Shown piece after piece: positions 13,051 to 13,592 of a DNA stretch of 64,000 nt. Made by a program: the position numbers and the translations under genes. The notes beneath the pieces are model-generated. The model worked only from the letters and a program-made list of their open reading frames with translations, did no database searches and was not told where the DNA came from. The stretch comes from a virus (taxonomy: Duplodnaviria > Caudoviricetes): IMG/VR virus record IMGVR_UViG_3300037313_001869, positions 320,001 to 384,000 of that record; one strand, 5' to 3'. The stretch's first letter is position 1. Every line of letters starts with the position of its first letter.

Positions 13051-13448
13051 GCCGCCTCTCCCGTCGCCTCGGGCTTCGATGCCGGCTCGGGCAGGGGCGC
13101 CTTCATCCAGGCGATGACCTGCTCTTCCGACCACGTCCCGTCGAACGCAGCGAGCGTCTTCTGGACGTGGCGCATCAGCCGGATGCCCTCGAAGGTCGTG
13201 AGGTCGTCGTGCGTCTTCGGCTCGACCGACCGGTAGGGCCGGCCCCGGACGCAAGCGTAGGCGAGCAGAGAGACCCGGGCGTCGTAGCCGACGAGCCGCT
13301 TTTCCTGCCATGCGGCCCACCGCTCCATCCCGGACGTACGGCGGATCTCCCCGCGGGCCTCCTGACCGGCCTTGGCGAGACGCTTCACGTCCTCCTTGAG
13401 AGCGAGGGCGACTTCCTTGTTGACGGGCTGCTTGATCGTAGAATCCAT
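13047..13448 (-). CDS. hypothetical protein with LAY-x3-RGRPY-x3-E motif; first gene after the leader
   Basis: SD GAGG before ATG 13448. Confidence 0.65.
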   Translation of the reverse strand: MDSTIKQPVNKEVALALKEDVKRLAKAGQEARGEIRRTSGMERWAAWQEKRLVGYDARVSLLAYACVRGRPYRSVEPKTHDDLTTFEGIRLMRHVQKTLAAFDGTWSEEQVIAWMKAPLPEPASKPEATGEAA

Positions 13449-13510
13449 GGCGAAAAACCTCTGTCGTTCAGAACTGAATCTCGGCGAAAACACCTGGAGA
13501 AACAGCTCGT

Positions 13511-13573
13511 CGGCGGAGGTCCGCGGCTACGAGGGTGCAGCTACCCGAAGGGAGGGTTCAGCTAGAGGTACAT
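13511..13573 (-). promoter_or_regulatory. putative leader peptide M-Y-L-UAG-L-N-P-P-F-G-UAG-L-H-P-R-S-R-G-P-P-P
   Basis: SD AGGA 7 nt before ATG 13573; TAG at 13564-62 and 13543-41; RGPP at 13525-13514. Confidence 0.6.
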
Positions 13574-13592
13574 GGTTTGGTCCTGGGGTCGG

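Follow-up and report, generated by a model that had tools for sequence, protein, structure and literature searches.

What is a suppressor tRNA for in a phage that uses the standard genetic code? Suppressor tRNAs are common in phages that recode none of their genes, and the question is raised in a concrete form by a short leader reading frame, interrupted by two amber codons (UAG), that lies in a 64,000-nt stretch of a Caudoviricetes genome (IMG/VR record IMGVR_UViG_3300037313_001869, positions 320,001 to 384,000). This whole stretch is called the window here, and all coordinates refer to it; its source is a single contig of 435,218 bp with a G+C content (GC) of 64.8% and 44 tRNA genes. An earlier, sequence-only reading of the locus had proposed that ribosomes reach an Arg-Gly-Pro-Pro (RGPP) motif at the end of the leader only after reading through both UAG codons, and that stalling at this motif unmasks the Shine-Dalgarno (SD) sequence of the next gene. 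Comparison with related loci places the leader in a family that is conserved in large phages and suggests that it probably senses UAG readthrough at the level of translation.

Anatomy of the leader

The leader occupies the 169-nt gap between two genes of the minus strand (14058-13618 and 13448-13047), both of which have a third-position GC of about 0.9; the second of them is termed open reading frame (ORF) A. All the elements that had been read in the sequence, i.e., AGGA, ATG, two UAG codons and RGPP in one frame, were indeed found on the minus strand, where all further elements of the leader described here also lie. The possible leader SD, AGGA (13581-13584), stands 7 nt 5′ of the start codon ATG (13573-13571), which is followed by TAC CTC and by the first UAG gate (13564-13562), so that this initial segment, delimited by the sequence and by the family pattern, covers 13562-13573. 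Between the gates six codons are found, CTG AAC CCT CCC TTC GGG (Leu-Asn-Pro-Pro-Phe-Gly), which together with the second UAG (13543-13541) make up the segment 13541-13561. The post-gate segment (13511-13540) consists of CTG CAC CCT CGT AGC (Leu-His-Pro-Arg-Ser) and of the putative arrest core CGC GGA CCT CCG CCG (Arg-Gly-Pro-Pro-Pro; 13525-13511), with RGPP itself at 13525-13514. About 20 codons precede the arrest point, and the leader has no hydrophobic segment; when both TAG codons are read, its frame stays open up to a TGA within ORF A (13387-13385). The SD of ORF A, AGAGGT (13462-13457), and its ATG (13448-13446) occupy 13446-13462, and the Arg codon of RGPP lies 77 nt 5′ of this ATG.

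The leader is preceded by a sigma-70-like promoter (13593-13621; one site vs. 0.2 expected), composed of TTGACG (13621-13616), a 17-nt spacer and TAGCAT (13598-13593). A repeat search revealed in the spacer a hairpin with a perfect 8-bp inverted repeat (13615-13599), which may form the end of the transcript of the upstream gene. An Rfam scan of 13300-13750 returned sub-threshold noise and no family.

A family of gated leaders in large phages

Relatives of the locus were not found by direct searches: megablast of 12000-15000 against phage records gave no match, single-protein searches of viral contigs with ORF A, with the PTH2-like protein (peptidyl-tRNA hydrolase 2 family) encoded downstream of it and with the product of the upstream gene found none, and ORF A matched only itself in an index of 5.8 billion proteins. 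The PTH2-like protein has 352 homologues, many of them on contigs of 100-500 kb, and the alignment of PTH2 homologues (A1) led to 80 loci from viral contigs. It was only through a profile made from the neighbours of these homologues that the ORF A family was recovered; a member is found in 59 of the 80 loci, in each case on the same strand as PTH2 and in most cases directly before it. With a profile of 45 other members, the window's ORF A is the sole significant match in its genome (expect value, E, 8.5e-25). A second, independent set comprised 80 metagenome loci, 8 of which are duplicates of viral ones. Since the related loci span 28% to 70% GC, with PTH2 identities of 41% to 62%, they are not assembly duplicates of one phage.

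For leader statistics 48 non-redundant viral loci were used. In 46 of them one frame encodes R-[GASD]-P-P, the Arg codon being 58-77 nt 5′ of the ORF A ATG (the window stands at the upper edge of this range), while the background frequency of this motif is 1.9e-4 per codon (binomial P about 1e-109). Traced upstream of the motif, the frame leads to a stop codon preceded by 1-8 residues and a Met (or Val/Leu), and the peptide kept around the gates has an aromatic residue or His followed by Leu before the stop and Leu/Ile-His after it. The metagenome set adds about 30 non-duplicate leaders built in the same way.

Counterparts with the layout of the window came from a search for TAG with Pro-Pro two codons later, which led to leaders upstream of PTH2 in two loci, L001 and L013. 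Both encode, in one frame, Met, 4 residues, UAG, x-(Gln/Asn)-Pro-Pro-Phe-x, UAG, Leu, 3-4 residues and Arg-Gly-Pro-Pro; their DNA differs from that of the window by synonymous changes, the same kind of promoter precedes them, and the genes behind them align with ORF A. Together with R-x-P-P in 46 of 48 loci, this double-gated frame bears out the conservation in homologous loci that the sequence-only reading had named as a check.

In the window both UAG codons are embedded in a 13-nt direct repeat (12 of 13 positions identical, spacing 21 nt). The near-identical context of the two codons, pointed out earlier, is therefore real here, yet it is not kept in L001 and L013. The repeat is probably a local 21-nt duplication: the first gate has the typical upstream context and the second the typical downstream context, which agrees with such a duplication and also with a double gate inherited from a common ancestor with L001 and L013. 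Its use as a promoter or operator motif was rejected, since the 13-mer around the UAG is unique in the whole 435-kb genome and is not kept in the two relatives.

A promoter of the form TTGAC(A/C/G)-16/17-TAnnnT precedes the leader ATG in 20 of 37 loci. In many relatives (L001, L003, L013, L025, L061, L071, and others) only 6-10 nt separate the -10 box from the leader ATG, which suggests that translation of these leaders is initiated without a 5′ untranslated region; in the window this distance is 19 nt and includes the AGGA. The leader of the window carries all five traits of the family, i.e., ORF A, a gated R-[GASD]-P-P, a cognate tRNA, the spacing with SD pairing, and PTH2 downstream.

How the leader may work

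The cognate tRNA of the window (11929-12021, minus strand) has the anticodon CUA, i.e., it is of the amber suppressor type, with a long variable arm, A73 and an encoded CCA; it was called by ARAGORN and matches the Rfam tRNA model with 58 bits (E 5.7e-12). Its gene lies 1.4 kb downstream of the leader, on the same strand and in the same gene run. In the proposed mechanism the host-type promoter would produce an mRNA that starts with the frame Met-Tyr-Leu-UAG-Leu-Asn-Pro-Pro-Phe-Gly-UAG-Leu-His-Pro-Arg-Ser-Arg-Gly-Pro-Pro-Pro. If the peptide is released at either UAG, the ribosome would leave, the Gly-Pro-Pro codons would stay paired with the SD in an 11-bp helix, and ORF A would not be translated; ORF B and the PTH2-like gene, coupled to ORF A, would probably be silent as well. 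If tRNA(CUA) reads both UAG codons, the ribosome would arrive at Arg-Gly-Pro-Pro, where peptidyl transfer would be arrested in a manner that resists elongation factor P (EF-P). By sitting on the anti-SD arm the arrested ribosome would free the SD, and other ribosomes could initiate on ORF A. With two gates in series, the output would scale with roughly the square of the suppression efficiency. We infer the production and charging of tRNA(CUA), the readthrough, the arrest and the SD unmasking from sequence. That RAPP/RGPP motifs arrest ribosomes, which the sequence-only reading had taken as established, agrees with published work, in which both cores proved experimentally robust, stalling ribosomes within several different peptides and withstanding EF-P (Fujiwara et al., EMBO J 2025, PMC12992588).

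The SD is predicted to be hidden by the very codons on which the ribosome would stop. In the minimum free energy (MFE) local fold of the window, GGACCUC of the Gly-Pro codons pairs with GAGGUUU of the ORF A SD, the complementarity that had been noted earlier; the 5′ arm of the predicted helix (13516-13526) lies inside the Arg-Gly-Pro-Pro codons and its partner at 13461-13449, and the helix encloses a predicted internal hairpin (13470-13505), within the 48-nt stretch between core and SD. The motif/SD duplex has -12.9 kcal/mol, vs. -7.5 for an upstream control and -9.4 for shuffled sequences. Matching pairing recurs throughout the family: in 46 of 46 loci the SD is paired, in the MFE fold of the RNA from the Arg codon to the ORF A start, with the Gly-Pro-Pro codons or with bases that directly follow them, and in all of these a hairpin of variable sequence is enclosed. 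The mean duplex energy of the family is -14.8 kcal/mol, vs. -6.9 and -8.2 for the two controls, a segment 24 nt upstream and shuffled sequences (Wilcoxon P about 1e-13). In the model, GAGGU of the window is unpaired with a probability (P) of 0.06 in free mRNA and of 0.04 with a ribosome at either UAG.

Several results weigh against the readthrough sensor with SD unmasking as described above. The full-length fold of the leader is only weakly better than shuffles (z -1.47), and in it the SD is paired with ACCUCU of leader codons 2-3 and not with the RGPP codons; this second pairing had been proposed as well, and while it appears in the full-length fold of the window, it is absent from L001 and L013. 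With a ribosome modelled on RGPP and pairs that span it allowed, bases far upstream take the SD (P unpaired 0.07); when only the downstream RNA is folded, the SD is partly included in weak hairpins of 3-4 bp (P unpaired 0.24). For the family, median SD accessibility rises only moderately, from 0.33 to 0.52. RNAalifold on a MAFFT alignment of 46 leaders gave no consensus structure, which is due to the 3′ (SD) arms being out of register, so per-sequence folds and duplex energies were used instead. Published RAPP-type arrest peptides are longer than the chain of about 20 residues that this leader would provide. The amino acid carried by tRNA(CUA) did not emerge from its comparison with Leu, Tyr and Ser tRNAs of the phage. 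Finally, on this genome alone the gated pattern is no rarer than chance: Met, 1-7 codons, TAG, at most 22 codons and R[GA]PP in six frames of the whole genome give two matches vs. about one expected. The claim that readthrough-dependent stalling unmasks the SD of ORF A is thus supported by comparison, whereas a simple thermodynamic model with ribosome-spanning pairs does not show a free SD; the structural evidence is consistent with unmasking and is no proof of it.

One may ask whether the same sensor has another output, i.e., whether the arrested ribosome acts via Rho or premature termination, via protection of the mRNA from nucleases or its exposure to them, or by repression of ORF A. The ambiguity of the unmasking calculation for the window leaves room for such a role, as does the enclosed hairpin, which is conserved in position and variable in sequence, lies between arrest site and SD and could have a role of its own. 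Yet the pairing of the Gly-Pro-Pro codons with the SD is the sole structural feature common to the 46 loci, 35 of 48 loci have CCT as their first Pro codon, so that CCUCC arises, and there is no T-rich terminator-like site in the leader region; a different output is therefore considered unlikely.

Gate codons and anticodons

Leader and tRNA are linked in that the gate codon follows the anticodon: TAG is found with tRNA(CUA), TGA with tRNA(UCA) and TAA with tRNA(UUA). The gate is cognate to the tRNA of the locus in 49 of 51 viral and metagenome loci, a number that none of 200,000 permutations reached. In a quick and weakly supported tree of ORF A TAA- and TGA-gated members are dispersed among TAG-gated ones, and one well-supported clade holds TAG, TAA and TGA members, each with the matching tRNA, which implies that gate and anticodon have switched together more than once.

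Does TAG mean anything other than stop in this phage? About 36% of its genes end in TAG. Over the genome, 207 TAG, 309 TGA and 58 TAA triplets are preceded by coding-like sequence, and coding-like sequence is present on both sides in 15 of the 207, 27 of the 309 and 6 of the 58, respectively; the TAG triplets with such a two-sided signal are those between adjacent genes, with no excess of in-frame TAG. Recoding of TAG over the whole genome, as in a ‘code 15’-like phage, was therefore rejected, as TAG behaves like TGA and TAA. Since TAG is an ordinary stop here, tRNA(CUA) is left without a genome-wide recoding job.

Could the leader report the activity of release factor 1 (RF1) instead, with a constitutive tRNA and with the efficiency of UAG termination, lowered by depletion of host RF1 or by inhibition by the phage, as the sensed quantity? 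Readthrough is the outcome of competition between RF1 and the suppressor, which makes the two inputs inseparable from sequence, and with so large a share of genes ending in TAG, UAG termination must stay efficient. Against this it can be said that the gate tracks the anticodon over UAG, UGA, UAA and apparently quadruplet gates, and that UAA, being read by both release factors, fits a design centred on the tRNA better. Sensing of RF1 is accordingly judged improbable.

On the side of the tRNA-centred sensor, a wider reading can be put forward, judged slightly more likely than not: large standard-code phages would carry a modular, self-contained sensor of non-standard decoding, in which the tRNA of the cassette, by overriding a UAG, UGA, UAA or, apparently, UGAA gate, opens the way to the arrest motif and thereby turns on ORF A and the PTH2-like gene, the two UAG codons of the window making the response steeper and threshold-like.

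The quadruplet gate refers to a set of loci whose cassette tRNAs have odd anticodons in the ARAGORN calls (‘ttca’, ‘ttc’, ‘tc’; L008, L010, L017, L019, L021, L024, and L028, and further L030, L031, L038, and L066). The leaders of these loci stand some 60-130 nt upstream of ORF A and lack a stop gate in frame; a short ATG frame meets UGAA, and the Arg-Gly-Pro-Pro frame begins exactly past this quadruplet. These loci could represent a natural quadruplet-decoding UUCA tRNA, i.e., a +1 frameshift suppressor, with its own sensor. RGPP without a stop gate was also seen in viral loci L059/L062 and L015, whose tRNA has the anticodon UAA and would read UUA, and in metagenome loci L099, with a tRNA called ‘tcta’, and L121; in such leaders a rare sense codon or a UAGA quadruplet may serve as the gate.

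As for the tRNA set of the phage itself, tRNA(CUA) is the sole tRNA outside the tRNA cluster at 266-300 kb of the genome, and the 44 tRNA genes include none with anticodon UAA. An exact anticodon-arm search of viral contigs with tRNA(CUA) gave no match.

Selection on the peptide and on the RNA

In the motif, Arg is encoded by CGT, CGA, CGC, CGG, AGA, and AGG in different loci, and the second residue is Gly, through all four GGN codons, or Ala, Ser, or Asp. Synonymous variation of the Arg and Gly codons indicates that the peptide is the conserved feature and that selection acts at the peptide level; the preference for CCT as the first Pro codon points to selection at the RNA level too. Hence the question whether RNA alone could account for the locus, with the CCUCC stretch as an anti-SD that damps ORF A, ATG-TAC-CTC-TAG as a minigene of at most three codons, and an RGPP frame that is incidental. 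The CCT bias and the conserved pairing, both signs of selection at the RNA level, speak for such an arrangement, as does the lack of significance of the gated pattern within this genome. It leaves unexplained why Arg is encoded by both CGN and AGR codons, and Gly by all four of its own, while the peptide stays R-G/A-P-P, why stop triplets cognate to the locus tRNA number 37 in the RGPP frame against 22 in the other two frames combined, and why the gate type switches with the anticodon of the tRNA; the RNA-only explanation is therefore very improbable.

The six frames of the genome contain 161 R[GA]PP motifs, and the second gated match, at window position 41646 on the plus strand, is a chance one, antisense to the start of a minus-strand gene. 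A chance arrangement in a GC-rich intergenic region, which such counts would permit, is hardly credible, since the leader keeps the family spacing to an ORF A gene, stands in a tRNA(CUA)/PTH2 cassette, is conserved in frame in L001 and L013 and recurs in single-gate form in dozens of loci. It is position and conservation across other loci that place the leader beyond chance, though its sequence alone does not. What is supported directly for the readthrough sensor is its anatomy, the in-frame conservation, selection on the peptide, the match between gate and anticodon, and the predicted anti-SD/SD pairing.

Genes downstream of the leader

The gene run behind the leader, on the minus strand throughout, comprises ORF A, ORF B, the PTH2-like gene, a tRNA-shaped sequence, a 75-codon ORF, tRNA(CUA) and HAD_SAK_2. 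ORF A (13047-13448), the proposed regulated gene, encodes a conserved helical protein of 133 residues, which AlphaFold predicts as a long helical hairpin with a small helical domain (predicted local distance difference test score 91). It matched no Pfam or PHROG family; Foldseek returned nothing at E below 1, and VIA-align only generic helical hairpins with Z below 7. Many ORF A proteins, the window's included (13047-13058), end in Ala-Ala like the ssrA tag, which by analogy hints at a short-lived protein.

ORF B (12694-13050; 118 residues) has a GTG start that overlaps the ORF A stop (GTGA) and was assigned to no family; it is the one extra gene that the window has between ORF A and PTH2. The PTH2-like gene (12387-12707; 106 residues; Pfam PF01981, E 2.3e-8) contains no in-frame UAG. 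Directly 3′ of it, where relatives carry tRNA(CUA), the tRNA-shaped sequence is located (12276-12352), which was called neither by ARAGORN nor by the Rfam tRNA model (E up to 1). The last gene of the run encodes a HAD_SAK_2 protein, an RNA-repair-associated HAD (11403-11891, with the start position inferred; Pfam PF18143, E 1.3e-23). The products of ORF A and of the PTH2-like gene may, for instance, deal with peptidyl-tRNA or with ribosomes that have continued beyond a UAG stop.

In many low-GC loci it is the start of PTH2 itself that contains a TAG: ATG, 1-2 codons, TAG, and then Ile/Val-Lys, at about position 6001 of the locus (L014, L018, L022, L026, L027, L034, L035, L037, L044, L054, L055, L057, L060, and others, and further L061, L065, L068, L070, L072, L073, and L075). 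One or two tRNA(CUA) genes lie 0.3-2.5 kb downstream in these loci.

Comparison with known systems

The closest known systems are the RAPP-like regulatory arrest peptides, i.e., ApdA, ApdP, ApcA, and SecM, together with the RAPP/RGPP leaders of Streptomyces lividans (Fujiwara et al., EMBO J 2025, PMC12992588; Nat Commun 2024, PMC10987492). They share with the window leader a short upstream ORF that is halted at Arg-(Ala/Gly)-Pro-Pro, where the stalled ribosome is believed to melt a stem masking the SD of the next gene. In the RAPP peptides arrest is the default and is released when Sec or YidC pulls an N-terminal signal or membrane segment, so that they serve as monitoring substrates, and they stand upstream of protein-localization genes. 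The window leader, in contrast, has about 20 residues and no such segment, its arrest would be conditional on stop-codon readthrough, and it stands in a phage tRNA/PTH2 cassette, upstream of ORF A and the PTH2-like gene. Without the features of secretion monitoring, it is not a member of the group of RAPP monitoring substrates, though it would work like one. If it does, regulation by RAPP/RGPP arrest extends from the monitoring of secretion to the sensing of how the genetic code is read.

A wider likeness is found in leader-peptide attenuators, in which leader codons sense tRNA supply, as in the trp and his operons, or the state of the ribosome, as in ermC, cat, and cmlA. Here too, the position of a ribosome on a tiny leader would set RNA pairing and the expression of the next gene. 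Unlike these, the window leader would sense stop codons through a suppressor tRNA, rather than sense codons or a drug-bound ribosome, and would be on when the special tRNA works. In the autoregulation of prfB, which encodes release factor 2, an early in-frame UGA is passed by a +1 frameshift that completes the same protein. An early in-frame stop likewise gauges termination against alternative decoding in both cases, but the window leader would rely on suppression by a dedicated tRNA and end in arrest within a separate leader.

For stop-codon-recoded phages it has been proposed that some genes are expressed only when a phage-borne suppressor tRNA permits readthrough (Borges et al., bioRxiv 10.1101/2021.08.26.457843). 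The likeness lies in a phage-encoded suppressor tRNA and proposed readthrough-conditional expression. Recoded phages have in-frame stops in many late genes, whereas in the present phage TAG is a normal stop and the leader is the only gated frame found. Neither leaders nor hydrolases are mentioned in that study (Borges et al., bioRxiv 10.1101/2021.08.26.457843), and no description of arrest leaders gated by a suppressor tRNA was found among 8.1 million open papers and 0.36 million preprints.

What would be new, then, is the input, stop-codon readthrough, while the output stage is that of a known translational attenuator with an arrest peptide; the anatomy is observed, and the function is suggested by comparison. 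If this is true, the ‘orphan’ suppressor tRNAs of standard-code phages gain a defined molecular target, and the leader family links them to a peptidyl-tRNA-hydrolase-like enzyme and to the conserved ORF A. The whole system is compact, about 150 bp (13446-13593) and one tRNA gene, and would be a natural readthrough reporter, for which the double-gate form predicts a squared dose-response, and a natural counterpart of engineered amber-suppression switches.

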